Shown here: positions 6,001-58,079 of the stretch, piece by piece | Layout of the letters: every line of letters starts with the position of its first letter | How positions within the stretch are numbered: position 1 is the stretch's first letter | NCBI GenBank assembly: GCA_000002435.2 | Contig: CM018791.1 | Strand: one strand, 5' to 3' | Origin: Giardia intestinalis | Taxonomy: Eukaryota | DNA: 64,000 nt | Notes under the pieces: generated by a model | What the model was told of the DNA's origin: nothing | The model's database searches: none | What the model saw: only the letters and a program-made list of their open reading frames with translations | Made by a program: the position numbers and the translations under genes

Positions 6001-9000
6001 CCTGGCCCAGAAGGAGGGCATTGTGATACGGGGCCCGATACGCAACGCAGCCATCAACGCTTCTCAATGCTTCTCTACAGGAATATTTTATGAAGCTTGT
6101 ACTTTTGGATATCTAGCTTATCAATACTTTGGCCTTTTTGTCCTTGATCAGGATGAAAAAGACAACAAGCAGCCAAATGTGGATCTCGGTAAGTCATCTA
6201 GAAAGTGTGGTAATAACATAGCTGCAGAAACTCGCCGCTACAATTCGTCGCTGGACCGGATTAAGCTTCTAGGGTCTGACGAGCCAGTTATTTATTCACG
6301 CGTCAGTGCTGATTATTCGCCTCTTAATTCTGTGTACTTGAAGCAAAACTATCCGAGCTTTCTGGATAAGTCACACTTTCTATCCTTGTGCTACCATGCC
6401 GATTTCACTCTTGTGGGCGACAAACGCGGGAAGCTTCTCTTTCTTGAAAAGAAGCTTACCATTAAGGTGCCGCGTAAGCTCTTTGAGCTGGACTCACAGC
6501 TGCAGTATGACCTTTTAGGCCTCCAGGGACCGCTTAGTCACACGACTGAGCAGCGGCCTGCTGCCCCGACTTGCATGGCTTTAAAAAGGCTCACAATTAT
6601 TCCTGATATCAATCTGCACATCTTCACAATTCTCTGTGCTGTCCTTCAGAATTATGTGACGTTTGACTCTCTCGCATCCCATCTGTTCGATCTGGACGCA
6701 ATTCATCAGCTTGTGTCACTGCAGTGGCGGGTGTATCTTCTGATGAGCAGATGCATTTTTATTATCTCATATGTCAGGGCCCACGCAAATAAGCTTTTTT
6801 ACTATGTCGATATGCAGACCATTTGTCTGCAAGCTAGAGGCTTGCCCGTTCTAGTGCCAGCTGTGCACACTAGAGCAGTGACCCACAAATTCTTAACGTT
6901 ACTATACAAGACACAAACCCTGCTCAGTACAGCCCAATCCAATGGAGCGACGATGAGCAATATCGCCTCTCGAAAGGTACTCAGAGACACCATCTTTGCG
7001 CAGATAAAGGACCTTATTGAGTTTGAGGGCGAAATAGTCGCCGCAAACATGCCATTTCTACAGCATTCGGGGACCCTCCGAGACAGTGCTAATTTTCCAG
7101 ATAGCTACATGCTATCGCGTCAATTTCTTGTCAGCTCCTTTATTGAATCAATCATATATGATAACTTTTACTCTCCTGTCATATGCTCTGCAGATAAGCT
7201 CACAGAATGCAAGGGAGCCGTTGTTTGTTCGCTCCCCGCAAGAGTCATAACTGCATGCAGCACTGTTCTATCCAACTTCGGATTTCACAGGATGCAGTTT
7301 GTGATTTACAAGATTGTTTCCCTGACGAATAGTCGTTCATTCTACATTTTCGCTGGCGTTCTTTTCGGTATGGATTTGCATGAGGCCTCTGGGCGCCAGC
7401 AGGAATATCTTCGCTTTTGCATGCCAATCTTACTGGATAGGCTTCCACATTGTTTCACCATATTGACATACTCTATGCTGCAAACGACCATTTCTGCGTC
7501 TCTCTCCTGGTATGTGCAATACTACTCGGACATACTTGCCAATGACGCACTCAATTGCGACATAGCATTGTGCATTCTTCGGAGCATACCTTTGGCCACT
7601 GGAGTTCTGGCCATTCTCAGGCTTTTCCACGTCCTGGTCTCCGATTCAACTAAGCCGGGTGTCAATAGTTTGGAGAAGCTGAAAACTTTGAGGTCCGCTC
7701 TCGCAACTCTTACGTATGTCTTAAGCATCCTTCTTCGGTATCAGATTATCACTGTTCCCTCTACATACATGAGCCTTGTGCATCGCTCTGTTTGCATTAG
7801 CATTGATAAGTACCTTGATCCATCCACTAGCGTTTGCTGTCACACCCATTTCACTATAGACTTTGAGGCACTTGAGGAGCAGTTTCCATATAACCACCAG
7901 CGCCATGACATGCCGATAACCAAGGCGGTTACCTTTGAGCAGCATGCACCCACTGAGGACTCGTACACGATACCGTGTTTCGATATGCTCCACGGCTCCC
8001 TGTCCAAAGACTTCAAACGAGAGGCCCAGAAAGATTATATGGCTGCGCTTTTGCACTACAATAAGCACCACATAAAGCACGCAACTATTCTGGGACCATG
8101 CACAGTGCTTCCATTCAGCTACCTATACATTAAAGATACTTCTCCCCTCGAAGTGCAGATATCTTCTATTTTGCAGGAAACTTTCACTAGCGTTCGATAT
8201 AGGCTCTTTAGAGACATCCTTATTTCGCTTTCCAATACCTTATCTGATATAATTGAGGACTGTGTAGAGACTCCGCCAGTGCTAACTCTGCCACCTAGCG
8301 AGAAACAGATCCAACCACCTGACACTGCGTCTCCAACAGTTAATCCTTATGTATCACACGGCTTTGTCACGAGCATCTTTGTGTCTGGTGGTGATGAGTC
8401 TCTTTTTCGGCTTCTTGATGATTTTAATATTTTTGCTTTTCAATTGCTTGGAGACTACTTACACACGTACAACCGTGACTTTATCACTAGTATGCGCTTC
8501 TTCCAAACCCGTGCTTCATTTTTGGGAACTCAACAGGCGTTCACACCCATGCGTGTATACTCTGGGGTAACGCCTGTCTGTGCCTATAAAGGCCACGTTT
8601 TTCTGGATGCTTCCTTTCCAGACGGCATGTTTGCTGAGTTTTCAACACTACCAATCTACTCCGAAATATTGGACAAGCTTTTATTTTACAAGTTATTGTT
8701 TATTGTTTCTCCTATCAATGATGGCCCAGCGTGTAACTCACCTCTCAAGTCCTTTTTCAGCGCTTATGTACCACTTATTACTGGGCATCCTGTGGTATTC
8801 GACCAGCCATGCTTGGTAGATGAGTTCTCCATCGAATCAATGACAGATAAAGAGGCTACGTACTTTAGGTCGCTCCTATGCATGTTGGTGCTCGGTGCTA
8901 TCATAGTAATCACAAGTGAGGTTGCTACGAGACATAACTGGGCTACCTATATGCGCCTGCACGAAGAAAGGGTTCGGCAGGACCTTCCAGGCAGCCTAGT

Positions 9001-12000: not shown

Positions 12001-15000
12001 ATTTGAAGAGGACACGTCTGTTCTCATACAGGATGATAAGTATAGAGAAAATATGCAACTCCAAACATCAGCAGACGAGCATATAAAATTTGGCACCTTT
12101 TCATATAACACGTATCTAATTCATAGTGTTTGCACTGATGCTGACCTGATCCAGCTTCTCGCTCGCCTACGGTCCATGTGCCAGTTTGTTTCATGTAACT
12201 CCCAGACCTATCTGGTTTCGCCATGTAGACTCATAGTCCTCATCAGAGCACATGCTTCTTTTCTATATTACCCAACCCTCCTCACACTACTTGGTCAGAA
12301 AGTTCAAATGATCGATAACACTGGAGTCATGCAACTAGTTACTCTGCGCAATATCCTCTTCTTGGTTGATGTTGCTCACGGGCCTCCAAAGGATATGTTA
12401 AGGATTTACCAGGTCTCACACCTATACACAGTTCGCACAGATGTGTCACTTCCCAGAACGCGGCGTGATAGACTCTGCACACAAGGAAAGCATTATGGGC
12501 ACTATCTCCTGGCAAAGATCTTTGGGTTCCGTGCTGTCAGTCGGCAGCTGGAGAACTTTCTCCTTGACCGAAACTTTATGTACACAGAGCGTATTTCTGC
12601 TTCGATAAGCACAATTTGGCTTATGGAACAATATTATGGTGTGTCACGAAGCAACGACCACACACTTAACGATACTATTTCTGCCATAATCTACAATTCA
12701 ATAGAACAAGCCGCCACTCAATATCATGAACAATATCCAGAAATTTATAGTGCACTCTATGGTGCCACGACTAAACAGAGGTTGATGTTAAAATTAGCTG
12801 ATGCGCCAGCTGCTTCCAGTACGCTAGAAGCGCTTACTTGCAGACAGCTTCTCACGCACACACCTGGTCAGGGCGTGCTCCTCAAGCAATTGATTGATGC
12901 CTTCAACATAAACCTCTTGAAGATCCTGATTAATCGAAGTCTTTATTCCCATTTCATGAACGAGTACGCTGAGCGAGTTGGCGGTCGAAAGAACCGAAAA
13001 AGTCGGCAACACACGACCGCCAGACAAGCTTCTGCAATCTCTAGAAAATCGGGTGCATCCCGTAGTTGCTGTGGCTCTCGGGCGTCATCGTTGACTGTTC
13101 TGGAAGAAACTATTGAAGAAGGAACTTTCTTCACACCAACAATCGATCTAAGTTACTATCAATCTGTGAAATCTAAGCGGTTAGAGGATAAGTCTGATGG
13201 ACCAAGCAGTAAAAACAGTGACTCGTTTGATACCACCTCCACATCGGCAGCTGCAATTTCACCTAGAGATCAGAGGGCCTCTGACATCAAATCATCTCAG
13301 GTTCCATCTCTTAGTGTTAAGTGGCTCAAGCCACCTATGGTGCAGCAGAACCCTGAGGTAGATGAGCACACAGAGAGCGCAGTAAAGCTGCCTGCTGTTG
13401 TATCGTCCCTTCTTAATAAGGACGTTGGTACCAAATACTTAGCCAAACTGAGTAGCCTCACAGGGCAAGACTATTTCGGAGTCCACACAATGGAGCTAAG
13501 GAACATTTTGGCAGAGGCTCACCTTTCTCCCATGCACATACCGACCACCCTGTTTGTCCCTTCAGGGCTTCTTAGCTACGCTGATTTTATCCTTCTAGCT
13601 AAGTCTTTACCTGGTGTTCTTGATGCTCTCCCGATAGACAGTCGTGTTCACCCAGTAGACAAAGACTCCATTTTATTGGTCGATATAGCTGCTGCTTGCG
13701 GATTAACAGATAGGGCACTTCCACCAGTACTCCAAACAATGAGCGTTACCGATAGATTTCTCACGGCCCTAAGGGCAGCTACGTGTGCGGCGATGGGTAT
13801 GCCTCCATCTGCGGCATATCCTCGAATCTTTGAACGCTTCAAGAAGCAAGCATTTTCGGGCATAGGATCCAGTTTGGAATCTCCGCTTTACCTACCTAGT
13901 GGACGCTTATCAGATACGACTATCATGCCGCAGCACATTCTGTCTACACACCCTCTCCTGGCTATACCGCGATGGCACTTTCACATAAACATCCAGACAC
14001 AAACCCTTATTCAGTATAAAACATCCATGCGAACAAGGACCGAATTTCACCCCGAATACGTCCCATATAACAAATATCCCCATCAATTTAATACCGTTAT
14101 TTTGGCAATCCCTCTCAGCCTTGCAGTGAGTTGCAATCTCCTCACTATGGTTGCTAACTTCCTTTATCCGGGGTCGGGAGAAAACAGCTGGATAAACAGG
14201 GAAGATCAAAGTGATTTTCTATCCGACTTCAGCTCCATTTCTAAACTCGGATTGGTCACCACAAGAACATATTTATGTTTTGTGAGCTGTACCATGCAAG
14301 TGATTATATTCGACAACTACTGTTTGCAAGCTGCTGTGCGCAAGGACATTCTTGCCATACTCCCACCTCATTTGGACGTAGTGCACTTTCATGCAGGCTT
14401 AAGCATGCACAAAGATATTGCTTCCATAACACAAAGTCCGTTGATGCAGCACAGGCTGTCAATTCCCATCCTGGCTTTGCCACCAACAGCCACTATAACA
14501 ACCCAGCAGAAAACGGTGGAGATATCGGAACAGTTGGCTGAAATGCGTGTATACATTGTAGCATATTATCTATATGACACGCTGGTGACACAGTTTTCAA
14601 GTTTCTCCATTCCATTCAGCAATAGCGTCGAATCTTCGGGTGAACTGGACACCGAACACGCCAACATGGATGTCAATCAAAGGACTCTGACAGCCTACTC
14701 TGCTCAGCGTAGCACCAAAGACTCAACATTGCACTCGGACGAGTCTTCAAATTACGTGGACTCGGAGATCAGAAGCCTGCGTTTACCTTCACTCTTGTCC
14801 TGTCCATCCTCTGCGAGGTCCAAGCGCTCTGTACACAATGATTTTCAAGATAAGTATAAGCACGCTGCTACTGTGTCTGGAATCCACGCTAGATCGATCA
14901 AATCTATTTCTAAGTTTATCCCATATTCAAACATTAACGATTTTATCCTGATAGTACGCCATGTATACCGAAACTTGAGAAGCTACTATGCTTCTAAGTT

Positions 15001-18000
15001 GCATGACATATCTCTCTTTCAGCAGCAATCTGTCAATTTAACAAAGCTAGCAAAGCATGGAAGCATACAAACACAGGAGACATTAACAAGAACTGCGGAA
15101 AATATCGCGCAATTTGCAGCAACTATTGTCCCAGAAGAAGACTTAGATGAGGAGAAATACAAGGAGTCAACAAAGGCACTCCACGAAGCAGAGAAAAGGC
15201 TTGCAACAATTACGCAAGAACTTACTGATGCTGAAGCGAAGGTGAAGACTCAAAAAGAGAAGCTGAAGAATAGCATAGAGGGAAGTTGCGCTGCTGTCAT
15301 GTACTTTGGAGACTCTAAGCTTGCCAGCTATGTGAAGGCGTTGCTGGCAGACCCGGCCAAATACCGCAACTTTGCTGAATTGCTACATAGAATCCCGGTC
15401 ATTTCTTCTGCAGTGGAGACTGTCAGTATTACTCCATGTGCTGCCTTACCCATTGCTGACTTTTGGAACATTGTTGCAGCTGAGGTTTTCAGCTCATGTG
15501 AGCGCCTCTATTCCCTCTTGGTTGGCTTCGACCAAGAAAGGGATGTGCTGGACCCCATAACCACGATAGATAGCTCTGCATTTAACGGCATTGAGACGAT
15601 CGTCTTCACTTGGTATATGGAAACCATAGAATACAGACGCTTTAAGGACGAATGTGTTGCTCAGTTCAAGCTGGAAGAGCTACGGAATAACCACGTTAAC
15701 CAGCAACACATCGTCTCAACCCTTGCAGCAGAAAATAGATTGCTTCAACAGACCTGCCAAAATACAGATAAAGCACGCAACATCAGCAGTTCTCAGTTGG
15801 ATCTTCTAGAAGCTCAGCTGTGCGACCTTAAGGAGTTGTTCCAAATAGAGAAGGATACCATAGGTATGGTTGTTAAGCACATTCCATCTATGGTCACTGA
15901 GGAGCGGCGGATGCGACAGATGCACAATCTCAGTTATGTTCACGGTGTCATTGTCGCTGCAACCGTGTATTTCGGAATTGGCTTAACCAGCATCTGCATT
16001 GATATTTTATCTAAAGCGAGTGGAACTTGCTCTTCAGAAGAGTGCTGTGCATTTTGTAGCATTCTCGATCTACCCCTCTGTTCGTGCTGCAATTGCTGTC
16101 TATGTTTTTGCGATTGCAAGTATGTGATGTCAGACACGGGTGCTACATTTCTGGTCAAAGCAGATGTTTTTAGTGAGCGTTCCATCTGTCGCCACATGAA
16201 ACGGAAAGACCAAGTTGTATCTCAGATGTTCCTTCTGCTGCGTAGCGAGTTCTCTCGCCAGCGTCTTTTGAAGTACAAGCTGCAGACAGACCAATTTCGC
16301 GTTCTGGAATTTGCGAGTCTCCTTATTCTCCACAAGGTCTTCAAGCGCCCGATCTTTGCTAGTAAGTATGCAATCCGTGATCTACCGCTTCTTGCAGATT
16401 GCATGGGTGCCTTAGATCCGTTTCTTTCCGTCCATACAGTCAGGGTGGCCCAGAATCTTTCTGCGTTTTGCTCTGCATTCCGAAAGGCTCTCCTAGACGT
16501 GCATACAAGAGTTATAGTCTTTGAGATAGCAGACACATGCCCTGCAATCCTGGATATTCTTGTCGCCTTCACGGTAGTTTATCCCTCTAAGGTTGAGACT
16601 GTGAATGAGGACACAACTTATAGCATACAAACTTTCTCCGTAAAGACTCCACGGCCCTTATCTCAGTATCGCTTCATAGTGACATTCGATATTGACGGTG
16701 CCAATCCTTTGGTGTATTGCATTGAGCCTGTAATTGTCAATCCATCTATTTTGCAAATGGATGTGTTAGAATTTCCATGGTATGCCTTGTTACAGAATGC
16801 TAGTATCTCTGCTGGCACCCTTTCTATGCACCGACCTTTTAGCTCCAAGGACGCTGAGGCCTCTATTCTTCTGCATAAGGATACAATACTTCAGCAGATT
16901 ATTTGTCACTACATTAATGGATACCACGACCGAGTTTTGGAGTATAGAACTGCTATTGTGGAGCTTGAAAGTGTAGTGGAGAGACAGCTACAGGTGTGCA
17001 TTGAGCAGTTGCATGAAGTGGAGAGTACCAGCTATACAGCAAAGGCATCAGTAGTCTATACGTGCTACAGGACATACCTTGACCAGGTGGACACACTATC
17101 TGCACTGTCCGATAAAAACAAGGCTATTCTCACAGAGCGGGCAAAGATGGAGAACGACGAACAGAGCAATCTCAATGTTGCCACCAGAATTATTATGGCC
17201 ATGAGCAACTATCTGCTCCGCTTGGCCCTGAGCTACCCTGCTGTACTTTATCCTCTGATATGTATACAATCCAAACCGTTCGCACATGACACAGATTATG
17301 TAGATTGCTCCCTTTTATTTTTACTCGAGATTGCTGATAACTTGTATAGAGCACTTCCACTATCAATCTTTCTCCCTGCCCTCATAATGGTTATAATAGT
17401 TTCTGAAATTACTCGGGGAACATTAACTCTGGATGACTATCAGCTCTTTAGCGCTGTTATGCTATCTGTAGGCAAGATACCCACTATCAACAGGGAAAAT
17501 ATTGATGTCGCCTCTCCATTCGGTCCCTACTATGCCGTTCAGTTTGATTCTTCTGGAAAGATTGTGCTTACATCAAAGGAGGCCTACTGCCTGGCTATGC
17601 TCCGAAAAGCTCATCCAAAAGTAGATTTTTCCATATTCACCACACCACTGGTGGGATCAGGAGAGGAGCCATTGAGTAGTGCACACACTACAAGGAACAA
17701 TCTCATGCTATACATCTTACGACAATACTCCGAAAAGAGCCCCAAACACATACACAATTTTCTTAGGACACTGGGAGAGTCCTTCTATTGCAAAATCATG
17801 GGTCTAGTATGTTATGGAACCGCCGGAGTGCAGACTACCACCAGTTCTAGACTAGCTTGTGCATTCAAGATTAAGCTTCCTGGGCCATCTATTGGACTAA
17901 TAACGAGAGTTGCTCAATCTGCCTCACCGTCCAGGGTCGTGCTTCTGCTCACTGCCAACACCGTACAGACTGCATATGCGCTATGGGCAACAGGCTTGTT

Positions 18001-19754: not shown

Positions 19755-19879
19755 AGGGTCAGACGAAAGGCGGTTTCTTCCTCACGTTGGGCTCAGCGGT
19801 AGCTGATTTATCTCTCTTCATCTACGAACCCCTTTTCTGTGAGCTGCAAAGTGAATTTAAAATACAATCTATTTTTAAA

Positions 19880-20516: not shown

Positions 20517-22250
20517 ATGTCTGCGAGCGTGGGCGCAGGGGTTGGAACGCTTGGAAGGTCTCTCGGCGTCCGCTTGCCTGGCTCCAAGGAATCGCGCAAT
20601 GAACTTGCTCTTTCCGCTGGTCCAGCTAAATCTAGTGAACGACCCCTGGGTCTCGGACCTTCTGTGATTAGTCGCACCTCTCAGTATAAGAACCTTGAAG
20701 AGCAGTACAACATCTTGAAGAGCAAGTACATGTCTAACGTGGATCGAGTTGCCGAAACTGTGCAGCTCAGCAACGAGTACAAGCAACTTGAGAAGAAGTA
20801 TGCTAATGCAACACGATCAGCCAGTGAGCTTGCGGCTGAAAACGAAGCTTTACGCGGAGAACTTTCGGAAACAAAGGGAGCTCTTGATACGTACAAGGAG
20901 AAGCTGGCGGAAATTTCTGTGCAACCTCCGCCAATTCTGGACACTGACTTGTCCACTAATCACTTATATTCGGACCATAATTTGGCTACTTCTGCCTCGA
21001 TGTCTGCTGCTGCCAATGTCATACCCCTTGCTGCGCCCTCTTATGTAAGCCAGGAGGAGTACAACGAGATGCTCAAGTCCCGAACATCTCCCGCGTCTGT
21101 GGTTCCATCTGTCCCGTTTGAGGCCTCTAATGCATCCGTGGATAGCACAGCGCAAGTCTGCGAAGCACTTGATAGCCTTCAAAAGGACAACATTGAGCTT
21201 AGAACAGATATTAAGGAAACCCTCCTAGAGGTCACGGGAAACCTCCAGACAACCATGGTTGACTTCAGAGATCTTCGGTCGAAGTGCGAGGACATGCGTG
21301 TAGTTTTGAATCAGCGTGAATTGCATCTTCGGGATTTGGTGCACACCTTGGAAGATAGGGACAAAGAAATATCAAGGCTTCAGCGTGCTATAGAGGCTGC
21401 AGAAAAGCACCGAACGCACCGCGAAGAGGAAATACAACGCTTCACTACTGAGTGCGAAGAGGTGGCTAAACACAATGAAGAAGTGATGAAGGAGAAAACA
21501 GCGTTACTTTCAAAGCTCAAAGGTGATAATATTGACCTTAAGGCGGAACTGCATATTAAAGCAGCTGAGCTGACTGAGCTCAAAGATAAGTTAGTAGATG
21601 CACAAAAGCAGTTAAGCTCTCATGCTAGCGAGAACGCGTCGCTTCTTGCCAGGCTTGGCACAGTAAAAAACAATGCAGAACGCCTCCTATTGCAACGAGA
21701 TGAAGACGTTGAAAGACTGACAAATGAGTTAACTAAGCTCAAAGAGGAACATACACAGCACATTGAGCAAAAGGACGAAGTGATCTCGCGACTGACAGGC
21801 GAATGTGAACGACTGAAGGTCGAGCTTGCACATTTAGCAGCAGAAAAAGACACGGAACTAAGTCGGGTCAGCGCTGATTTAGCAACTCTGCAGCAAACAT
21901 TTACCCAATCAACACGAAAGAAAAACGAAGAGGCCACAAAGCTAGCTCAGGATATCGTTGAAAATAAGCTGGAAGCTGCACAAGCGCTTGAAGAAAGAAA
22001 CAAAATAATTACACAGTTGAATGCTCGCATTACAGAATTAGAACTAGAACTAAAACAACGTCCGCTGGCCAGGGAATATACCACAGTTGATATGACAATA
22101 ACACAAAAACAGCGCCCACTGTCTGCAATCGATTCTAGAAAGACACACGAGGATGAGGCAAATTCTATACGGTTCTCAAAGTCTGTGGCAGGATCTTCAT
22201 CAAATAAGCTTGTTGTTCCCATCGAATATTTGGTCATCTCTAAGCAGTAA
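20517..22250 (+). CDS. Coiled-coil protein (577 aa)
   Basis: Track ORF with an ATG start preceded by AT-rich caataaattgaaagatc. Most of the protein is heptad-like and charged (LEKKY..., ELRGELSETKGALDTYKEKLAEI, EIQRFTTECEEVAKHNEEVMKEK...). I could assign no specific family. Confidence 0.7.
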   Translation: MSASVGAGVGTLGRSLGVRLPGSKESRNELALSAGPAKSSERPLGLGPSVISRTSQYKNLEEQYNILKSKYMSNVDRVAETVQLSNEYKQLEKKYANATRSASELAAENEALRGELSETKGALDTYKEKLAEISVQPPPILDTDLSTNHLYSDHNLATSASMSAAANVIPLAAPSYVSQEEYNEMLKSRTSPASVVPSVPFEASNASVDSTAQVCEALDSLQKDNIELRTDIKETLLEVTGNLQTTMVDFRDLRSKCEDMRVVLNQRELHLRDLVHTLEDRDKEISRLQRAIEAAEKHRTHREEEIQRFTTECEEVAKHNEEVMKEKTALLSKLKGDNIDLKAELHIKAAELTELKDKLVDAQKQLSSHASENASLLARLGTVKNNAERLLLQRDEDVERLTNELTKLKEEHTQHIEQKDEVISRLTGECERLKVELAHLAAEKDTELSRVSADLATLQQTFTQSTRKKNEEATKLAQDIVENKLEAAQALEERNKIITQLNARITELELELKQRPLAREYTTVDMTITQKQRPLSAIDSRKTHEDEANSIRFSKSVAGSSSNKLVVPIEYLVISKQ

Positions 22251-22254
22251 CGGA

Positions 22255-22570
22255 ATGTATTTTGGTAATTGGCTTTGTGTTTCTATTGCTTAGTAGGATT
22301 TCTATACTCTTTTACATTCCTGCAACGCTTGCGAAAGCATAATAATCACATATAATAAGCTTAATATATTTTTATTGGTCAAACCGTCCTCAGTACTTAA
22401 TACTAGAAATGTGGACGCATTAATGGATATGTATTGTGAGTAAACGTGCTTATTTTAATGAGTATCATTTTAACCATTGATGATTAGAATCGTTGGCTAC
22501 ACTTATAGAATATGCTATTACATACAAAAGATATGCATAGGGCACTGGCCAATTAATAGTTCTCTTCTAC
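22255..22570. other. AT-rich island (about 300 bp) downstream of the coiled-coil gene
   Basis: The sequence is visibly far more A/T-rich than the rest of the window (tattttaatgagtatcattttaacc, ttaatatatttttattgg) and has no long ORF. Composition was judged by eye, not computed. Confidence 0.5.
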
Positions 22571-24528
22571 TGCGCTAGTTTGGCGTCTGTTGTGATCTTG
22601 TGTCCTGTCTCGTCATCAATAAACTTTTCTGTTATGGATAGCATCATCGATGGCTGGTCATTCGATAGCTACAGTTGCGACAATCATCGTCAGTTATTCT
22701 TGCTGGCGGAGACAGGCCTCAGGAAGATACTTGTTCGGAGATCCCGTTTGCGTCCACTACGGCGCCTATCCTGAGAAGACAATGCTAACTTGCGTAAGGT
22801 ACTTCCACTGCTCATTCCCGCTGGTCCAGATAAACGCCTTGCATACTTCGGATTGCCCTCTGCTGGCAACAGAGCAGCCACTGCCCTTTGTGTTTCCTTC
22901 AGACACATGCCCATCTATGACGGCGCTTCTTGTCTCTTCTCTGGTGAGGCATAACCGCACCAATCCAGACACCTTGCTCTCAGCACGCATCTCGTATCCA
23001 GCAGAAGCCAGGTGTTCGTCAGCCATATCCCGTGAGCATCAGCACTGTGCCACTATGTTACTTCCTGTCCTTCTTGAGGGGCGTGCTCTAATCATCCCAG
23101 TGTCTCTATGATAGGAGAGCTGTGGATCCGGAGGCTGCTGTGGCTTTCTGGCCCTCTCTGCTGTCCAGGAGAATCCAAACTCGCCCTTCGGGAGTCGGTC
23201 CCCTAACCTTCTGTTCTCTCGGGGAAGTGGTCCTTGGATAGTGCTACCCAGAGGGCTCCCGAAGCCTCACTATATGGGTGCTGCTTCTAAGAACTCCTGG
23301 AGTATCCTTAGAGAGTCTCCCAGTGGCGCAAATCCTACCCATTGTCAGCGGAGGTCTCGGCTCTCAAGGACATCTCAGGGACAGCACGCCGGTGCCACTT
23401 CCTGACGGGGGCCAGGCGGGGGCCGCTCACCCTTGTGGATCCATCATTGGCATCGAGAGCACTAAGCCTGCCATCTTCGCTGGAGGTGTCAGCAGACGGT
23501 ACTCCGCATCCACCTATGGAAGGGCTGAGTCGTGTGCTGTCGTCATAATATTCCATATTAATGCAGATAAATCTCCCGGTGGCACTTGGGGATACCCAGC
23601 ACAGCACGCTAATATGTTGCTTGCTCGAGCTATCGCTCAGATCTGCGATCCCCGTGGTCTGGGCCAGGTGCCTTGAATGGCCTCCAGCCCTAGTAGGAGC
23701 ACAGGTCGGTGCTCCTTGTTCCAAACAAGCATTCCGTCTATTGTGCCCAGCCCTGAAAGACTCGCTCCTTCGCAGGTGCCCGAGCCAAGCGCTGTCTGCC
23801 GCCCAGGAGGCGTGCTGGCATTCAACAGAGAGGCTTGCAGATACCACAGACCTCGTTGGTAAAGCGCCTGGGCCCCTGCCCTGGGCACGAGTAAGAAGCC
23901 CCAGCAGTACTTCGCTGCGGACTATGACACGGCTCCTGTGTGCACCAGGCGATGCACAGCAGCCACGAGTGTGCAGTCCTCTGCGCCTGCCCACCGATGA
24001 CGCAGCTGGGGCCTGTGGGGCAGCAGGGCCGAGACATACATATGGGAGGCGCCAACGGGCATTGGGCTATTGGCCGTCAAATGGTGGGTATGACTTGAGA
24101 GGTGGCTCGCGGCAAGTAGTTTACTCGACCGCAGCAGACAGGATCGCCTTTGGCCTAAAACCGCCATGTGTCGGTAGATGCACCTGTGTCTTCCACCATT
24201 GTTCTGTGTGCTATTATTATATTCTGGCTTCTCTAGATTTAGCAGAGGCATCTAACAAGGAATTCACAACTAGAGGCTGGCCCAACAGCCAGAGAGGCGT
24301 CTATTGGGCTGTACACCCATGCACCGGATTGTCTCGAAGGCGTCGTTCCCTCTCTAATTACGTGCCCTGTCCCCGGTCCGTACCAGCGAAAGTCTTACTG
24401 AGACACCCACTGTCCAGGATACTGACCAGACCACCAGGCAGCGATTGGCCGGAATAAGGGAGAGCCGCTCTCCTTGGCATACTCTACTATGTGCGTGCAA
24501 GAATGGATGGACCATAAAGTGAGGCCAC

Positions 24529-26949
24529 TCAGTTTTTCTTTCGGAAGACGAAAAACCAAACCAGCACACCCGCCACACCGCCGACGACGAGGACCACGCT
24601 GATGGCGATGCCAGAGATGGCACTAGACGAGAGGGCGGACTTTTTGGAGGTGCTGTCGTACTCCAGACATACGGGTGTGGCTGCACCCTCTGGAACCACG
24701 CAGAGGCTGCACTTGGAGATCGCCTTGTGACACGCCTTGCACGTGCTCTCGGAGAAGTAGTACCCGGCCAGGCAGTCAAAGCATACCTCCCCATGGGGGC
24801 AGGTGGCGCAGCCCTTGGAGCACGCCTTGCACGCCCCCTTCTCCAGGTAGAACCCGCTGTTGCAGGCGTTGCAGACCCCACTGCTACACATTGCGCAGTT
24901 CGTCGGGCATGTAAGGAGCGTTCCGTTGTACGTTATCCCGTACCCGGTCACGGTGCTGTCACACCAGCCGTTACTCTCCTTCGTGCAGACAGTCTTCCCG
25001 GGGAGGAGCGTGGAGGTGTAGCACCCCCCGTTGAGGCTGAAGGAGTTTGAGCTGCAAGCAGCACATCTACCGGCAGCGACATTCGCGCACGCGATGCCAG
25101 CCGCCCGCAAGCTGGAGAAGGTGCACGCCCCGTTGTTGGGGTACTCCGTGCTCTTGGCGCAGCGCGAGCAGTAGCTGGTCCCGCCCACCGTGAGCCCGCA
25201 CTCTGCACAGCTGCTGTCCTGCACGCACTGCGGGACGCACGATCCCTTGGCACCGTCGCTGTACTGCAGCCGCTTCCTGGCAGGGCAGGAGGTGCAGTCA
25301 CCGGACGCCGGTCCGCTGCACGTGGCACACTCAGAGCTGCACGGCTTGCATCCTCCCGAGCCCTCGACGTAGAACCCGTCCCTGCAGGTCTTGCACTTGG
25401 ATTCCGACTCGCAGACTGCGCAGTTGCCGAGCGTGCACGCCACGCACCTCGAGACGCCCCCCACGGTGGCCTTGTAGTACCCGGCGGAGCCCAGGCAGTC
25501 CTTCACGCACAGACCGTGGGGGTCGAGGCTGTTGCCACCGGCACACTTTGTGCATACGTTTCTGTCCTCGCACGTGTCGCAGTTGGGGTCCTTGCACTTG
25601 GTCGCCACGCACTGACTGCCGGAGAGTGTGTAGCCATACTTGCACTTCTTACAGCTCGACTCGTCACACTCAGCGCAGTTCTCCACCGCGCACCCGACGC
25701 ACTTCCCGTCCTTCAGATATGACCCGTCATCGCACGCGCAGCTGTGGACCGAGGATGAGGACCCCTTTATGCCCTTCTGCCCCTTGGGACAGCTGGCCAG
25801 GCAGCTCCTCTTATCCAGGCTCAGGTAGAGGTCGCGGCACTCCAGACACTGAAGACTACTGTCCTTCATCTCACACCTTTGGCATCCCTCTATTCCCCCG
25901 TTGGCTGAGTCCCCGCAGCGCCAGCATCCGTTGTTCTTGGTGAACACTTCATTGATTGAACTGTTGCATGCAGTACACACATTGTTTTGCACTGTCTGAC
26001 AAATCTGAGACCCTACTTGACCTGGAGCATAACTAAATAAGTAGCATCCACCATAAAACAAGAAGTATTGCCTGTTGCTATCATTCTTACAAGATGTGCA
26101 TTTTCCCGTTTCAGAATCTTTCGTACAAACATTATCAAATCCGCTAATTGACCCACAGAGGCCATTCTGAGGCACTTCTGATGAATTGGCACATTGTGTG
26201 CACAACGATTGTCCCTGTATATCTATAGTATTTCTTGGTAAACAGATACTGTTGCCAATTACACTATCTGTGGTATAACACCCAAACTGACTCCAGACGT
26301 AACCCCTAGGACAAAAGTAACAATAGCCGAGCTCGAGTCCCTTAACAGACCTACATCGAAAATCAAAAGGGCACATAAATCGTTCTGAGCATTCGCTACA
26401 GCTGGGTATAGTGTTCCCTGGCAACCTATGTTGGTTACAGTACTGACACCTATATACACCACTACTCCCGCCAAAGCCTACTATATCTCCGCAGTAGATA
26501 CAGCGTTCAGGAGAGGTCGCATTAGGGTTGGTAAAAGTTATTGGAGTATAGTACGTACTACCCTTTCCGCACTCTTGACAAATCCCATTTTCTGCACGAT
26601 CGCAAATACTTGCTTTCCATCTGCCAGACAATTCATAGCAGCCACCGTAAAATAAGAAGTAACCATTTTTACATCCTGTGCACCATCCACCTTTCGGCGA
26701 TTTAACACAACCGGCTTTATTAACTTTTTCGTCTGTAGTAGCAACACATGTGCCGTTGATGGGAACATAATCCTGGCTACACTCTGTGCAAAAAAAAGCA
26801 CCTAAGTCCACTAGGCATCTATCCTGAAGACACTGTGAGATCTTGCCTTCACAAGAATACCCAAAGCCATTGTAGTATACAAACGTTTCCTCAGAGAAAG
26901 ACCCTGCCAGAAAACAAGTCAGAATCACGATCAGCGAAGCCAAAGTCAT
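24529..26949 (-). CDS. High-cysteine membrane protein (HCMP; VSP-like Cys-rich type I membrane protein without the CRGKA tail)
   Basis: 806 aa starting with ATG. The N-terminus MTLASLIVILTCFLAGSFS looks like a signal peptide. The protein has dozens of CxxC/CxC motifs and GGCY motifs (LFYGGCYELSG, LFYGGCYLFSY). The C-terminus has a hydrophobic helix IAISVVLVVGGVAGVLVWFFVF followed by the short tail RKKN. An AT-rich stretch (aataaagaataatagcttc) lies just upstream of the ATG on the minus strand. Confidence 0.8.
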   Translation of the reverse strand: MTLASLIVILTCFLAGSFSEETFVYYNGFGYSCEGKISQCLQDRCLVDLGAFFCTECSQDYVPINGTCVATTDEKVNKAGCVKSPKGGWCTGCKNGYFLFYGGCYELSGRWKASICDRAENGICQECGKGSTYYTPITFTNPNATSPERCIYCGDIVGFGGSSGVYRCQYCNQHRLPGNTIPSCSECSERFMCPFDFRCRSVKGLELGYCYFCPRGYVWSQFGCYTTDSVIGNSICLPRNTIDIQGQSLCTQCANSSEVPQNGLCGSISGFDNVCTKDSETGKCTSCKNDSNRQYFLFYGGCYLFSYAPGQVGSQICQTVQNNVCTACNSSINEVFTKNNGCWRCGDSANGGIEGCQRCEMKDSSLQCLECRDLYLSLDKRSCLASCPKGQKGIKGSSSSVHSCACDDGSYLKDGKCVGCAVENCAECDESSCKKCKYGYTLSGSQCVATKCKDPNCDTCEDRNVCTKCAGGNSLDPHGLCVKDCLGSAGYYKATVGGVSRCVACTLGNCAVCESESKCKTCRDGFYVEGSGGCKPCSSECATCSGPASGDCTSCPARKRLQYSDGAKGSCVPQCVQDSSCAECGLTVGGTSYCSRCAKSTEYPNNGACTFSSLRAAGIACANVAAGRCAACSSNSFSLNGGCYTSTLLPGKTVCTKESNGWCDSTVTGYGITYNGTLLTCPTNCAMCSSGVCNACNSGFYLEKGACKACSKGCATCPHGEVCFDCLAGYYFSESTCKACHKAISKCSLCVVPEGAATPVCLEYDSTSKKSALSSSAISGIAISVVLVVGGVAGVLVWFFVFRKKN

Positions 26950-28039
26950 GAAGCTATTATTCTTTATTGGATACCTATGAAAGTTACACGCACTAATCCG
27001 AGTCAGCCACTGAAAGCCTTGGCTTAGAATTACAACTGTCAGAGTAATACCCCTTGTACTTCTTACAGACAGACTACAGCCGGCAGACCCATAGAAGGGC
27101 CCGCTCTACTTATACTAGTCATCGACTCACACGGCGACCTGAGCAGCCTGTAATCTGGCTCTGCAATGAAACAGTTAGGCGATCTGTTTGTCCCCACTCT
27201 CAAGCGGAATTGCCTAATTCAAAATTACTAACATACGCTTCAAAGTTTCGCAGGACTTACAGTACAGAAAACTCATTGAGAACCTATTCCGAGCAAACAC
27301 GTCCGGTACACAACCACCTCGCAAAGGACTCTCTGCTGTCAAGGAGATCCTCTCGAGGTCTATGAGTGGGGTGACTGTAAGCGAGCTTCTTGAAGAATGG
27401 CCGTTTTCAGGCGCCTGTCCATCCCCTTACCCCGATGTTCCGGGAACCAGCATCAGTCATATCTTCGTTGAGCAAGGGCACTGTGGAGGGGACTCTGCAG
27501 GGCCTAACGAGCGTTCGAAGGTGCAGCAGAACAACGACGAGACACGGTATGCCGTCGCATAGGCACTAAGATCTTGCTGACCTGTGCACTGAAGGATGCA
27601 GGCCATCCGAGTCCTTCTCTGTATGCAATCGTAGCCTGCTGCTTTCGTCGGTGTTTGTCATCCACGAGGGCCCTTATTACCCGAAGCCCTAGAGCCCTGA
27701 GGTCGTACTGCGGCAAGCATCTGCTCTACAGGTGCTGACGTACAGGCCACTTTACTTTATTACTGGCAGTCGGAGAATACTTCGACGTGGTTTGTTCAGA
27801 GACGCCAGGAGTACAGCCAAGTACCTTGCCGATAAGCACAACATCCAGCCCCAGAAGAACATCTAGTCCTCCTGACGCACGATGCGGCCATGTTTGTCTT
27901 CTGCTGGTACCGGGCCCAAACGGACAGCCTGCTTACTGAAGAAGAACGTATGCAGTTAGACACCTTTGAAGGCCTGGCCTGCCTTAGCAACCCAATTCAC
28001 TGCAGAGTGCCCTTTGCTGCTCCCCGCCCCCAATGCACG

Positions 28040-28400
28040 GAGATTTAATCAAGCGTGATGATTCATTGCACCCGCCGGCCACGCCCAGCCCTGCCCGCGG
28101 GCGTCTCACTCAAGTCCCGGCCGTCCTGGTGGGCGCGGGTCTCCGCAACCCTTTTCAACAAAGCTCCCACCTGTCGCGGCGGCGGCTGTCGGCCTCTGGC
28201 TCACCGGCTGGGGCCGCCCCTCCGCGAGGAGCTCTGCGACGTCCCTGTTCCCCGCCTGCGCAGCGAGCAGCAGGGCCCTGCGGCCGTCGGCGCCCTCCCT
28301 CTCGTGCTCTGCGGGGCGGGGATCCGGGCCACCCTGGGGCGGTTCCCGTGGGCGGCGTGCATGAGGCCGTCACCCCCTACTCGTCACGTTTGCTGATGCC
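28040..28400. other. Very GC-rich island (about 350 bp) in the HCMP/kinase spacer
   Basis: It contains runs such as gcccgcgggcg, ggtgggcgcgggtctccgc, cggcggcggctgtcggcc, gcggggcggggatccgggcc. Its ORFs overlap on both strands (28033..28557 +, 28155..28373 -) and encode Arg/Pro/Ala/Gly-rich low-complexity peptides, which is typical of non-coding GC-rich DNA. Confidence 0.5.
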
Positions 28401-28529
28401 AATCCCTCTTCAAGTAGTGTCCGGACGGTCTCTGTGTTGTTTGTGTGCAGCGCGCATCAGCCTGAGGAAGACTGTGGGTACCGGCCGCTCCATCCTGTCA
28501 CTAAGCTGCATGACCTTGGCCTCTAGCCT

Positions 28530-29684
28530 TCACGTGGCCAGATGCCCTTTACCCTGATCCTCGAGAGTGCCCTTAAGAGAGGCAGTCTCAGCAGACCTGG
28601 CGTCGAGGGCCGCCTCAAGAGTAGTAATCCTGTCCAGCTTGGTCTTGGCATCCTCCTCCAGAAGTGTAATCCTGGCGTTAGCACTGTTCAGAGTAGTCTC
28701 CAAGGCGCCGCACTTGTACCTCAGCATCACGCACTGACCCCCCAGCTCACTAACTGGGATGTCGAATGTAGCGAGCGTCTCGTGCAGCTCCCTGGCCGTC
28801 GGCCTCCTCTCTGGCTCCAGCACGAATATCCTCTCCAGAACATTCTGCATGAAGCCATCAGTGACATCGCTCAGGTCCGGCCTCCACCCATCGACGAAGA
28901 CCTCTGCTGGGACTTTACCTTCTAGGAAGTCCGGTTTCCTTAGAGTAGTAAGCTCGTAGAGGATGACCCCGAGGCTCCACACGTCGGAGGCGGGGCTGGC
29001 CTCGTTGCGAAGGAGCACCTCGGGGGCCACGTATGCCATTATTCCCATGAGAGTGCTCCCACTCCACAGGGCGTCCTTGCAGAGGCCGAAGTCGGCGATG
29101 ATGAAGCGCTCTCCGTCTGCGCTGACGAGGATGCTGGCAGGCCTGAGGTCGCGGTGGACGAGCCCCCTAGTACCTATCCCACTGAGGCCGTAGAGATAGG
29201 CGAGGGCGGCAGCGACCTGCCTCAGGACGGAGAGGATCACAGCGATAGGGATGAGAGTCTTCCTTCGTTTGTGCTCGGTGAGGAGGCGCTCGAGGGTCTT
29301 GTCGTGCCGGTCTATGACGACATAGATGAGACCTTCGTCCTCGACTACTTGGTGGTGCCTGAGGACCCCCGGATGGGAGAGGTCGAGAAGGGCGGTCAGC
29401 TCTAGTCTGATGGCATCTGCACTGTTCTTATCTAAGCCGTCGAGGAGGATCTCCTTCAGGGCAAGGCTCGGATATCCCTTGAGGGAGTAGACTACACCTG
29501 CGACGCTTTCATTAGGCACGCTATCCAGTCGCTCGTGGAGTTCCCTGAGGGCGAAGTGCAGGGGGCTGGACGCGCGACTGCCACCGCCGCCCACGAATTC
29601 CGTTTTTGGACGCCCGGGCGATCGATCGGACGGCCCGCGGAGAGGCCGCTCCTGCCGGCCCTGTGGCAGCGAGCGATGCCGCAC
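28530..29684 (-). CDS. NEK-like Ser/Thr protein kinase with a C-terminal coiled coil (possible pseudogene or non-canonical start)
   Basis: Kinase motifs are present: LALKEI (VAIK-like Lys), HRDLRPASIL, DFGLCKD, YVAPE, DVWSLGVILYEL. The C-terminal tail is heptad-rich. The Gly-loop is degenerate (VAGVVYSL). The ORF begins at GTG and has no in-frame ATG before the kinase domain; the first Met is in subdomain VII-VIII. Confidence 0.6.
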   Translation of the reverse strand: MRHRSLPQGRQERPLRGPSDRSPGRPKTEFVGGGGSRASSPLHFALRELHERLDSVPNESVAGVVYSLKGYPSLALKEILLDGLDKNSADAIRLELTALLDLSHPGVLRHHQVVEDEGLIYVVIDRHDKTLERLLTEHKRRKTLIPIAVILSVLRQVAAALAYLYGLSGIGTRGLVHRDLRPASILVSADGERFIIADFGLCKDALWSGSTLMGIMAYVAPEVLLRNEASPASDVWSLGVILYELTTLRKPDFLEGKVPAEVFVDGWRPDLSDVTDGFMQNVLERIFVLEPERRPTARELHETLATFDIPVSELGGQCVMLRYKCGALETTLNSANARITLLEEDAKTKLDRITTLEAALDARSAETASLKGTLEDQGKGHLAT

Positions 29685-57798: not shown

Positions 57799-57830
57799 TT
57801 TAAAAATCGTTTTTAGGCCAGAGCTAAGAC
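57799..57830 (-). promoter_or_regulatory. AT-rich initiator-like region upstream of the proposed ATG (57798) of the small minus-strand gene
   Basis: The coding-strand sequence is cctaaaaacgatttttaaa followed by ATGGGGATCGTG. Confidence 0.35.
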
Positions 57831-58079
57831 CTAAAGACTGGGTGTATGGCGTCTCTTCTTGTTCCAAAAGCTTTCTCTCACCTTACCAAGGGGCAAGATG
57901 GAACGTCCACTTTCAAAAGGGTTTCTTCTCCCATCAGATCAAAGTCAATCTCATCATACCTAGCCGCTAATACACGTTATTTAAAAGTCGCGCCAGCCTC
58001 TCTTCCCAAGAAGCTGGATCTTGATAGCTTTATTAACCAGGAAAAGGTTCGCACTAGTAATGTGCGAGATCTGGAGACC

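Follow-up and report, generated by a model that had tools for sequence, protein, structure and literature searches.

Few genes lie around the VSP genes of Giardia, and duplications make up 6.9% of its genome (Xu et al. 2020, PMC7000408). The median intergenic distance has been given as 79 nt genome-wide, 1280 nt beside VSPs and 363 nt beside HCMP-type genes, and the 3'UTRs of HCMP genes range from 7 to 2000 nt (bioRxiv 10.1101/2022.03.07.483299). The members of vsp pairs stand 2-4 kb apart, with non-coding DNA between them (Adam et al. 2010, PMC2996952). Long, gene-poor and duplicated flanks of cysteine-rich protein genes are already described in this organism.

We analysed a window of 64,000 nt from the 1.97 Mb chromosome of Giardia intestinalis WB (assembly GCA_000002435.2), in which 2278 nt (22251-24528) separate two convergent genes, GL50803_16543 and a VSP-like HCMP gene. 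This gap shares several traits with the VSP and cysteine-rich flanks (PMC7000408, PMC2996952, bioRxiv 10.1101/2022.03.07.483299). Non-coding DNA on the kilobase scale flanks a VSP-like gene in a genome that is otherwise compact, gene and flank were duplicated together as far as an abrupt point of divergence, sequence variation between isolates is raised and a NEK kinase gene takes part in the duplication. Unlike in the inverted vsp pairs, the other neighbour of the gap is an ordinary single-copy gene. The flanks of vsp pairs are identical and adjacent, whereas the copies described here are dispersed and about 90% identical. Moreover, and in contrast to some vsp-pair spacers, no retrotransposon or pseudogene remnant is detectable here. 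We think that the gap is quite likely ordinary, made of two long 3'UTRs and of non-coding DNA without constraint, copies of which have spread through the genome together with the HCMP gene. Its main value would then be as a clear negative result, in which a striking hole in a compact genome amounts to two 3'UTRs and the drifting flank of a duplicated surface-protein gene.

The gap, its limits and its parts

On one side the gap is limited by the stop of a 577-aa ORF at 22250 and on the other by the stop of an 806-aa HCMP ORF, on the minus strand, at 24529. The 2.3 kb between these stops in the first-pass annotation of this DNA thus hold, at 2278 nt. The two ORFs are KAE8302611.1, which is GL50803_0016543, and KAE8302612.1. 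Since these accessions are consecutive, no annotated gene lies inside the gap. Its length is similar in assemblages A and E, with 2290 nt in the second assemblage-A genome (GCA_000498715.1) and 2371 nt in P15, from assemblage E.

The first-pass annotation took the remaining spacers of the window to be short. They indeed measure from -26 to 180 nt, with one exception that it missed, the second flank of the HCMP gene (26950-28529, 1580 nt). This flank is likewise without a gene, because the ORF at 28033-28557 looks spurious. Another apparent gap, 57868-64000, was rejected, being a long ORF that runs past the window edge. The AT-rich island followed by GC-rich DNA is also confirmed, with a GC content of 33.8% at 22251-22640 and 57.9% at 22841-24110, against 47.5% in the whole window. 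The following features were delimited.

22251-22451, plus strand: 3'UTR of GL50803_16543, AT-rich (32.8% GC), 201 nt in PMC9014877 Supplemental Table 1
22434-22461, plus strand: block TTGTGAGTRAAYGTRYTTAYTYTAATG, conserved in the comparison across assemblages, with the poly(A) hexamer AGTAAA at 22439-22444
22452-22839, no strand: single-copy spacer, AT-rich to about 22640; 64% identity between WB and P15, with 8 indel events
22840-24109, no strand: distal tail, unconstrained GC-rich non-coding DNA; 63.8% identity between WB and P15, with 32 indel events
24110-24528, minus strand: probable HCMP 3'UTR; hexamers AGTAAG (24393-24398) and AGTAAA (24120-24125)
24529-26949, minus strand: HCMP, VSP-like gene (context); exact match to KAE8302612.1 / XP_001706947.1, Pfam VSP domain with E = 1.5e-84
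22840-29497, no strand: dispersed duplicated block, GC-rich, 6.7 kb; 90% identical to 14125-7483 of contig L012, in another gene context

We propose that the gap would be composed of four non-coding pieces: a 3'UTR, a single-copy spacer, the distal part of the tail of a duplicated block and the HCMP 3'UTR. The boundaries between them, at 22451, 22840 and about 24110, could aid the annotation of the locus.

Transcript ends, mapped and probable

The first 201 nt of the gap are the 3'UTR of GL50803_16543, as shown by the published mapping of UTR lengths (PMC9014877, Supplemental Table 1) and by the sequence. AGTAAA at 22439-22444 is the sole AGTRAA on the plus strand of the gap, and AGTRAAY is kept in P15, in GCA_000498715.1 and in two more distant Giardia contigs (L002 and L003). 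The hexamer ends 7 nt before the published cleavage position, 22451, in agreement with an AGURAA placed about 10 nt upstream. This 3'UTR, which is about half of the AT-rich island, resembles the long Giardia 3'UTRs with AGURAA signals (Bilodeau et al. 2022, PMC9014877; Franzen et al. 2013, PMC3610916) both in its AU-rich composition and in the AGUAAA just before cleavage. It is much longer than the typical one, with 201 nt against a published median of 59 nt (PMC9014877, PMC3610916). GL50803_16543 was not found in the main texts of the literature searched. The AT-rich 3'UTR ends just past the conserved AGUAAA signal and, in our model, is followed by about 390 nt of single-copy spacer (22452-22839). 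This spacer has no Rfam match, and its identity between WB and P15 is lower than that of 4-fold sites (76%).

On the opposite side, no other part of the gap is as well conserved in P15 as 24110-24528. AGTAAA at 24120-24125 is the sole AGTRAA on the minus strand of the gap. Every assemblage-A copy has both minus-strand hexamers at the homologous positions, and so has P15, where they read AGTAAA and AGTGAA. PMC9014877 gives no validated cleavage site for HCMP. As in other AGURAA-ended 3'UTRs, conserved hexamers of this type are present on the HCMP side, two in number, and its 3' end is predicted from them. We infer that about 24110-24528 is most likely the HCMP mRNA's own 3'UTR, probably with two tandem poly(A) signals. 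The first-pass annotation had foreseen neither the mapped 3'UTR in the first 201 nt nor conserved poly(A) hexamers in the 420 nt next to HCMP.

A dispersed block and the drift of its tail

The GC-rich part of the gap belongs to the block that begins at 22840 and consists of a 1.69 kb tail, the HCMP gene with 1.58 kb of spacer upstream of it, and the 3' portion of a gene for a NEK kinase. Contig L012 matches it at 90% over 6.7 kb and adjoins KAP and NEK genes, while L018 matches window positions 22760-26968 at 88% (4.2 kb) and adjoins a CCDC39-like gene. The gap itself recurs in L013, the true orthologue. All three belong to one genome, GCA_000498715.1, which thus holds at least two high-identity copies in different contexts with abrupt boundaries, as in a segmental duplication. 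A further copy, L019, has no tail at all; in the other two of the three extra copies the tail was duplicated too, and its distal end is nearly the same. No break in colinearity is seen in P15 at the 22840 boundary, and the WB-type short-read contigs from five runs all stop at 22875. Taken together, these comparisons of copies establish the duplication and its boundary at 22840. WB also has an HCMP paralogue (KAE8305772.1), 91% identical, on the 4.0 Mb chromosome, chromosome 5, and this paralogue presumably carries the same tail. Within the window itself, the search for repeats found only one 35-nt chance pair in the gap.

The piece from 22840 to about 24110 would therefore be the distal part of the copied tail. 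Identity between copies is mosaic, since from 23277 on the two GCA_000498715.1 copies are 96-100% alike, whereas WB is 83-98% identical to either of them. This pattern is probably caused by gene conversion, by which copies of the block would exchange sequence. GC-biased gene conversion was considered as the source of GC-richness and rejected, as GC content and inter-copy identity are uncorrelated (rho 0.05). Among the first-pass candidates, a recombination scar beside a surface-antigen-like gene comes nearest to these data: from about 22840 on, the gap lies in a dispersed HCMP block that appears to undergo gene conversion. Of the other two candidates, a structured ncRNA is not supported and a decayed gene is at best hinted at.

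As a neutral yardstick we used the 4-fold sites of GL50803_16543, which are 75.9% identical between WB and P15 and 92.2% between WB and GCA_000498715.1. In the latter comparison, identity of the distal tail is 90.3%. By this measure divergence of the tail is neutral-like, its identity being at or below that of synonymous sites. The comparison of copies also revealed a tolerated deletion of 50 nt at about 24400. We hypothesize that the tail would drift at or above the neutral rate and that its long ORFs would be by-products of high GC.

Open frames, hairpins and rival readings

The ORFs listed in the first-pass annotation, 22650-23111 (plus), 23335-23994 (minus), 23561-24457 (plus) and 23922-24251 (minus), are all present at those coordinates. 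Three of them, and one structural element, need to be described.

22650-23111, plus strand: 153-aa ORF, judged spurious; spans the duplication boundary at 22840, with a frameshift and stops in the orthologous copies L013 and L014
23561-24457, plus strand: 298-aa ORF, judged spurious; open frame 23552-24457, GC1/2/3 0.59/0.59/0.54
23335-23994, minus strand: 219-aa GTG-start ORF, judged spurious; stops in L012 and L013, GC1/2/3 0.58/0.62/0.58
23655-23720, minus strand: two adjacent hairpins on the HCMP-sense strand, possibly due to chance; z = -3.48 for 23601-23750 (minus)

One rival reading is a real lineage-specific protein gene missed by annotation, either at 23561-24457 or at 22650-23111 on the plus strand. 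The 302-codon open frame is longer than expected by chance (P<0.001 against dinucleotide shuffles; P=0.013 under a second-order Markov model), the frame 23552-24457 is still open in the paralogous copy L012 and ORFs of the region have been called on other Giardia contigs. However, the ATG of the 298-aa ORF is absent in three other copies and its frame is broken by frameshifts or stops in two (L013, L018), while in P15 an equivalent ORF is lacking and the longest open frame, of 180 codons, stays below expectation. The dN/dS of this ORF, 0.52-0.61, is no lower than in the stop-filled frames (0.46-0.91 in the other five), whereas the HCMP control gave 0.35 in frame and 0.94-1.22 out of frame. The substitution phase test is weak, as even the HCMP CDS reached only P=0.04. 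A phmmer search of the 298-aa ORF against 1.84 billion representatives returned no homologue other than two unnamed Giardia contig ORFs. The 153-aa ORF, in which the first-pass annotation had seen no recognisable features, has indeed no Pfam match, its exact sequence is absent from a collection of 15 billion proteins and its ATG is missing in P15. Scoring of its codons agrees, as its GC1/2/3 is flat (0.53/0.51/0.53), unlike in real genes.

The same holds more broadly. Gap ORFs show flat codon-position GC, whereas real Giardia genes have a GC2 of 0.35-0.45 with higher GC1 and GC3; against the frame-specific codon log-likelihood of real genes, the candidate frames score negative. When the gap ORFs, including the four named above, were mapped onto other copies, each had a lost start, a frameshift or stops in at least one copy. 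Pfam found no domain in the eight largest ORFs (the single match of the 219-aa ORF had E=0.17) or in the six-frame translations of the gap, and exact gap ORFs are absent from the 15-billion-protein collection. For the Giardia intron 3' motif CTRACMCACAG there was one match with one mismatch and without the branch A, which is chance level. Coding signal is absent from the gap as far as these sequence tests reach, and a missed gene is extremely improbable.

A somewhat different proposal is that the tail derives from a gene whose decay preceded the A/E split and has left it unrecognisable. A VSP/HCMP, a NEK kinase, an ankyrin protein and a retrotransposon are among the candidates. Pseudogenes and reverse-transcriptase remnants have been reported between vsp pairs (PMC7000408; bioRxiv 10.1101/2022.03.07.483299), and the excess open-frame length is accompanied by a depletion of stop codons (94 observed vs 130 +/- 8 expected). 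Nevertheless, P15 has no such excess, and the six frames contain no Pfam domain, including VSP, Pkinase, Ank and RT. When the 129 ORFs of 120 codons or more in the window and in five related loci, all real genes among them, were used as tblastn queries, only syntenic copies of the gap were matched. Neither a VSP/HCMP pseudogene (six-frame Pfam, and tblastn queries from the VSP/HCMP ORFs in the window and the related loci) nor a retrotransposon remnant of GilM/GilT/GilD type (no RT domain in six frames by Pfam) was found. The decayed gene of the first-pass annotation thus has no Pfam domain, tblastn match or homologue behind it, with the over-long open frame as its one hint, and we regard it as unlikely. 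Its reading of the overlapping ORFs as non-coding GC-rich DNA fares better: the ORFs are spurious in our judgement, though composition is not the whole explanation, given the over-long 302-codon frame.

The GC-rich part could also hold a structured ncRNA gene, with the UUCG-type hairpins at about 23190 and 23255 as its mark. Both hairpin-forming motifs exist (CTTCGG at 23186-23191 and its reverse complement at 23259-23264), and the gap has 3 CTTCGG sites where about 0.8 would be expected at the window-wide density, the motif not being enriched in the window as a whole (22 found vs 23.3 expected). The first-pass annotation took them for candidate stable hairpins, but in neither orientation is the region 23100-23350 more stable than its shuffled versions (z +0.38 and -0.36). 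Over the gap, the mean fold z against dinucleotide shuffles is 0.09 and 0.06 (43 windows per strand). In other copies, hairpin 1 loses its outer stem and hairpin 2 two of its pairs, without compensation, and against P15 no stretch is less conserved than the hairpin region, at 49% identity. The Rfam scan of the window at gathering thresholds recovered only GlsR8 (19757-19826), and so nothing in the gap; an E-value scan of 22100-24700 gave a best match of 17 bits (E = 1.2), far under threshold, and no tRNA or tmRNA was found in the gap. Small ncRNA genes such as GlsR8 (Rfam RF02337) also lie in spacers between protein genes, but GlsR8, the true snoRNA of this window, scores 104 bits, whereas the gap matches no Rfam family, shows no excess of folding and does not conserve the proposed hairpins. 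RNA-structure signal is absent from the gap by these predictions, and an ncRNA gene is close to refuted. Overlapping long ORFs and UUCG-like hairpins in GC-rich DNA thus need comparative support before gene or RNA calls are made.

Finally, since the tail-side ends of two independent copies, L012 and L018, lie at most 80 nt apart (the opposite ends are 2.5 kb apart) and gap lengths are similar between assemblages A and E, the 1.7 kb tail could be a functional non-coding unit. It might be a long 3'UTR or read-through, for which HCMP 3'UTRs of up to 2000 nt offer a precedent (bioRxiv 10.1101/2022.03.07.483299), an lncRNA or a source of small RNAs controlling HCMP, with the hairpin pair at 23655-23720 (minus) as a conserved element. 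None of 200 shuffles of 23601-23750 (minus) was as stable, and P15 keeps 11 of the 12 pairs of helix 2, with one compensatory and four one-sided changes. This outlier is, however, one among 86 windows tested. In the shuffle control (94/500) the covariation is not significant, on five sequences that are effectively two lineages, and the RNAalifold covariation term is unfavourable (+0.88). A covariance model of the pair (R1) matched only homologous copies and none near other VSP genes. The neutral-like divergence with its indels, the tolerated deletion and the tail-less copy L019 likewise argue against constraint. We therefore consider a functional tail quite improbable, and drifting DNA remains the preferred reading. 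More specifically, a tail travelling with HCMP as a long or alternative 3'UTR or as an independent minus-strand RNA, its hairpins perhaps processed to small RNAs, for example by Giardia Dicer, is very doubtful; if true, small RNAs from the hairpin pair could act in silencing of, or choice among, VSP-like genes. The pair is the one small lead remaining at this locus, with the over-long open frame as a second loose end.

Setting of the gap

The gap between the stops of GL50803_16543 and the convergent high-cysteine membrane protein (HCMP) gene (22251-24528) is an instance of a published pattern, the gene-poor duplicated DNA found around Giardia VSP/HCMP-type genes. Coding sequence makes up 81% of the Giardia genome and intergenic stretches average 477 bp; 6.9% of the genome is duplicated, often with multigene families involved, and the surroundings of VSPs tend towards few genes and higher variability (Xu et al. 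2020, PMC7000408). Intergenic medians are 79 nt genome-wide, 1280 nt beside VSPs and 363 nt beside HCMP-type genes, and HCMP 3'UTRs measure 7-2000 nt (bioRxiv 10.1101/2022.03.07.483299). Paired vsp genes have 2-4 kb of non-coding DNA between them, and their flanks are identical up to an abrupt divergence point (Adam et al. 2010, PMC2996952). The gap is an ordinary feature, already covered by published descriptions. A hairpin pair, an over-long open frame and near-coincident tail ends are residual leads that leave this verdict unchanged.

The ORF at 20517-22250 (577 aa) matches GL50803_0016543 / KAE8302611.1 exactly, and the minus-strand ORF at 24529-26949 (806 aa) matches KAE8302612.1, 'High cysteine membrane protein VSP-like', exactly; both proteins are on a 1,973,847-bp record of Giardia intestinalis WB C6. 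Since the two accessions are consecutive, no annotated feature lies between both genes. The gap, the composition contrast and the ORFs listed in the first-pass annotation are all present, and its observation is confirmed, its interpretation being supported in part. The gap is 2278 nt long, with 33.8% GC in 22251-22640 vs 57.9% in 22841-24110 (whole window, 47.5%). The remaining spacers between long ORFs of the window measure -26 to 180 nt, except for 26950-28529, the upstream HCMP flank, which is gene-less, 1580 nt long and inside the duplicated block (22840-29497). The sole ORF of that flank (28033-28557, 174 aa) has no Pfam match, scores negative for codon usage and is flat in GC1/2/3 (0.69/0.66/0.65). 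As both flanks are gene-less, the HCMP gene lies inside a ~3.9 kb island of gene-less DNA.

Two further observations concern the window. A box C/D snoRNA, GlsR8, at 19757-19826(-) (Rfam RF02337 'GlsR8_miR10', 104 bits) occupies most of an 84-nt spacer; the genes on either side are both on the + strand, and the VSP-like gene is 4.7 kb away. The seeming absence of ORFs at ~57830-64000 is an artefact of the ORF-listing rule, and an ORF of at least 2057 codons on the + strand there runs past the right window end.

Transcript ends

The validated 3'UTR of GL50803_16543 is 201 nt long (Supplemental Table 1, Bilodeau et al. 2022, PMC9014877), which places cleavage at ~22451; the same study gives 59 nt as its median 3'UTR length and AGURAA as the poly(A) signal. 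Three hexamers are relevant to the ends of the two convergent genes:

22439-22444, +, AGTAAA within the ~28-nt block TTGTGAGTRAAYGTRYTTAYTYTAATG, conserved across genomes
24393-24398, HCMP strand, AGTAAG, 130 nt beyond the HCMP stop
24120-24125, HCMP strand, AGTAAA, 404 nt beyond the HCMP stop

The + strand of the entire gap has no AGTRAA other than the AGTAAA at 22439-22444. When WB is compared with a second assemblage-A genome, with P15 (assemblage E) and with two Giardia contigs of more distant origin, TTGTGAGTRAAYGTRYTTAYTYTAATG is the one clearly conserved spacer element. The spacer after the orthologous stop codon is AT-rich (37-40% GC) in every one of them. Given the published length and the conserved AGTAAA block, we assign the first half of the AT-rich island to the 3'UTR of GL50803_16543.

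On the opposite strand, the AGTAAA at 24120-24125 is the only canonical hexamer in the gap. Every assemblage-A copy that has the tail carries both HCMP-strand hexamers in homologous places, and their P15 counterparts read AGTAAA and AGTGAA; the copy without a tail (L019) has AGTGAA 57 nt beyond its stop. BLAST conservation with P15 starts at 24063, just past the distal hexamer. The HCMP 3'UTR, absent from the published UTR-length table (PMC9014877), would putatively be ~145 and/or ~415 nt long.

Protein-gene and structured-RNA readings

The gap holds no protein gene. In real genes of the window, GC2 is 0.35-0.45 and the codon log-likelihood is specific to the frame; unlike them, the gap ORFs have flat codon-position GC (e.g. 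0.59/0.59/0.54). A clean protein match was likewise lacking in a six-frame Pfam search of the gap. The ORFs of the GC-rich part, broken in other copies, indeed lack gene character, as had been noted, and P15 has no equivalents of the gap ORFs. As individual candidates, the 22650..23111(+) ORF was rejected because it lies across the duplication boundary, has a frameshift in the orthologue and lacks its ATG in P15; the 23561..24457(+) ORF (ORF298), because its ATG is missing in three other copies and it is frameshifted in two; and the minus-strand ORFs, because of stops in other copies. The dN/dS of ORF298 (0.52-0.61) is indistinguishable from that of stop-filled frames; the HCMP control gave 0.35 in its own frame against 0.94-1.22 in the others. 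The tblastn queries were ORFs of 120 codons or more, real genes among them, taken from the window and from five related loci; they hit nothing but homologous gap copies. Among 1.84 billion representatives ORF298 has no relatives except two unnamed Giardia contig ORFs. Its 302-codon open frame exceeds the composition expectation (P<0.001 and P=0.013), with no such excess in the GCA_000498715.1 orthologue or P15.

A structured RNA in the gap is likewise not supported. UUCG-type hairpins had been put forward as a candidate structured ncRNA, with an Rfam scan and folding of 23100-23350 as checks; Rfam has no match in the gap, the folding gave z = +0.38 and -0.36, and a fold scan of the whole gap gave a mean z of ~0.07. 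Both named hairpins lose pairs without compensation in other copies and sit within the stretch least conserved vs P15 (49%), and CTTCGG occurs in the window at chance level. The only fold outlier is 23601-23750(-) (z = -3.48), where 11/12 pairs of one helix persist in P15, the changes being one compensatory and four one-sided. This hairpin lead is weak: it involves five sequences from two lineages, its shuffle control lacks significance (94/500), and for the hairpin pair a covariance model retrieves homologous copies only.

Duplicated block and divergence

We compared four related loci in GCA_000498715.1 (AHGT01), which we take to be the assemblage A2 isolate DH:

L013, true orthologue, with the VSP-like gene and the GL50803_16543 orthologue 2290 nt apart
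L012, window 22840-29497 at 90% identity, among quite different neighbours, with KAP and NEK kinase genes adjoining
L018, window 22760-26968 at 88% identity
L019, gene alone in common, homology stopping 16 nt beyond the stop codon

The 4.0 Mb chromosome of WB also carries an HCMP paralogue, 91% identical. For each of five independent WB-type sequencing runs, the short-read contigs break off at window 22875. At its other end, 29497, the duplication stops within the NEK kinase gene (28530-29684(-)). P15 has the same layout (orthologue, 2371-nt gap, minus-strand VSP gene) and is colinear with WB across 22840; consequently, the WB locus is the older site. The copies form a mosaic in their identity: from 23277 onwards the two GCA_000498715.1 copies are 96-100% alike and WB is 83-98% identical to either, and elsewhere along the block WB is nearest to L018. 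From this mosaic we infer gene conversion. The GC-rich DNA of the gap is the edge of the duplicated block's GC-rich composition. Of the readings first suggested for the gap, the recombination scar comes nearest: from ~22840 on, the gap belongs to the duplicated block, and gene conversion would be the process behind the mosaic.

At L012, the copy retains just a truncated kinase ORF (7398-8018, 206 aa), beside which another NEK gene, 77% identical, lies in inverted orientation. Beyond its tail copy lie 2.7 kb more without a called gene (14126-16799), with no ORF >100 codons and no similarity among the sequences compared. The tail ends of two block copies nearly coincide.

As a neutral yardstick we used the 4-fold degenerate sites of GL50803_16543 (identity 75.9% for WB vs P15, 92.2% for WB vs GCA_000498715.1).

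Identity of gap segments (WB vs P15; WB vs GCA_000498715.1)
22251-22451, 3'UTR: 73.0%; 89.6%
22452-22840, single-copy spacer: 64.1%; 94.3%
22841-24110, tail core: 63.8%, with 436 gap columns and 32 indel events; 90.3%
24111-24528, HCMP-proximal part: 68.7%; 94.7%

No gap segment is conserved above synonymous sites between WB and P15. At ~24400, loss of 50 nt between ACTGAGAC direct repeats is tolerated: the 50 nt are absent from the WB and GCA_000498715.1 copies and kept in locus L011 and P15 (L001). The position between direct repeats is the signature of slippage or microhomology deletion.

Between WB and L013 (20517-22840), the 4-fold sites of GL50803_16543 diverge by 7.8% and the spacer differs by 6-10%. 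For two genomes of assemblage-A type this divergence seems high, and it points to either a deep haplotype or a zone next to the HCMP block that evolves fast. In the more distant Giardia contigs L003 and L004, the gene that follows the GL50803_16543 orthologue differs:

L003 12139-12504, -, ankyrin-repeat protein, 425 nt from the orthologue
L004 8613-8810, +, VSP-like N-terminus, 735 nt from the orthologue

The site is therefore a synteny breakpoint filled by variable gene families.
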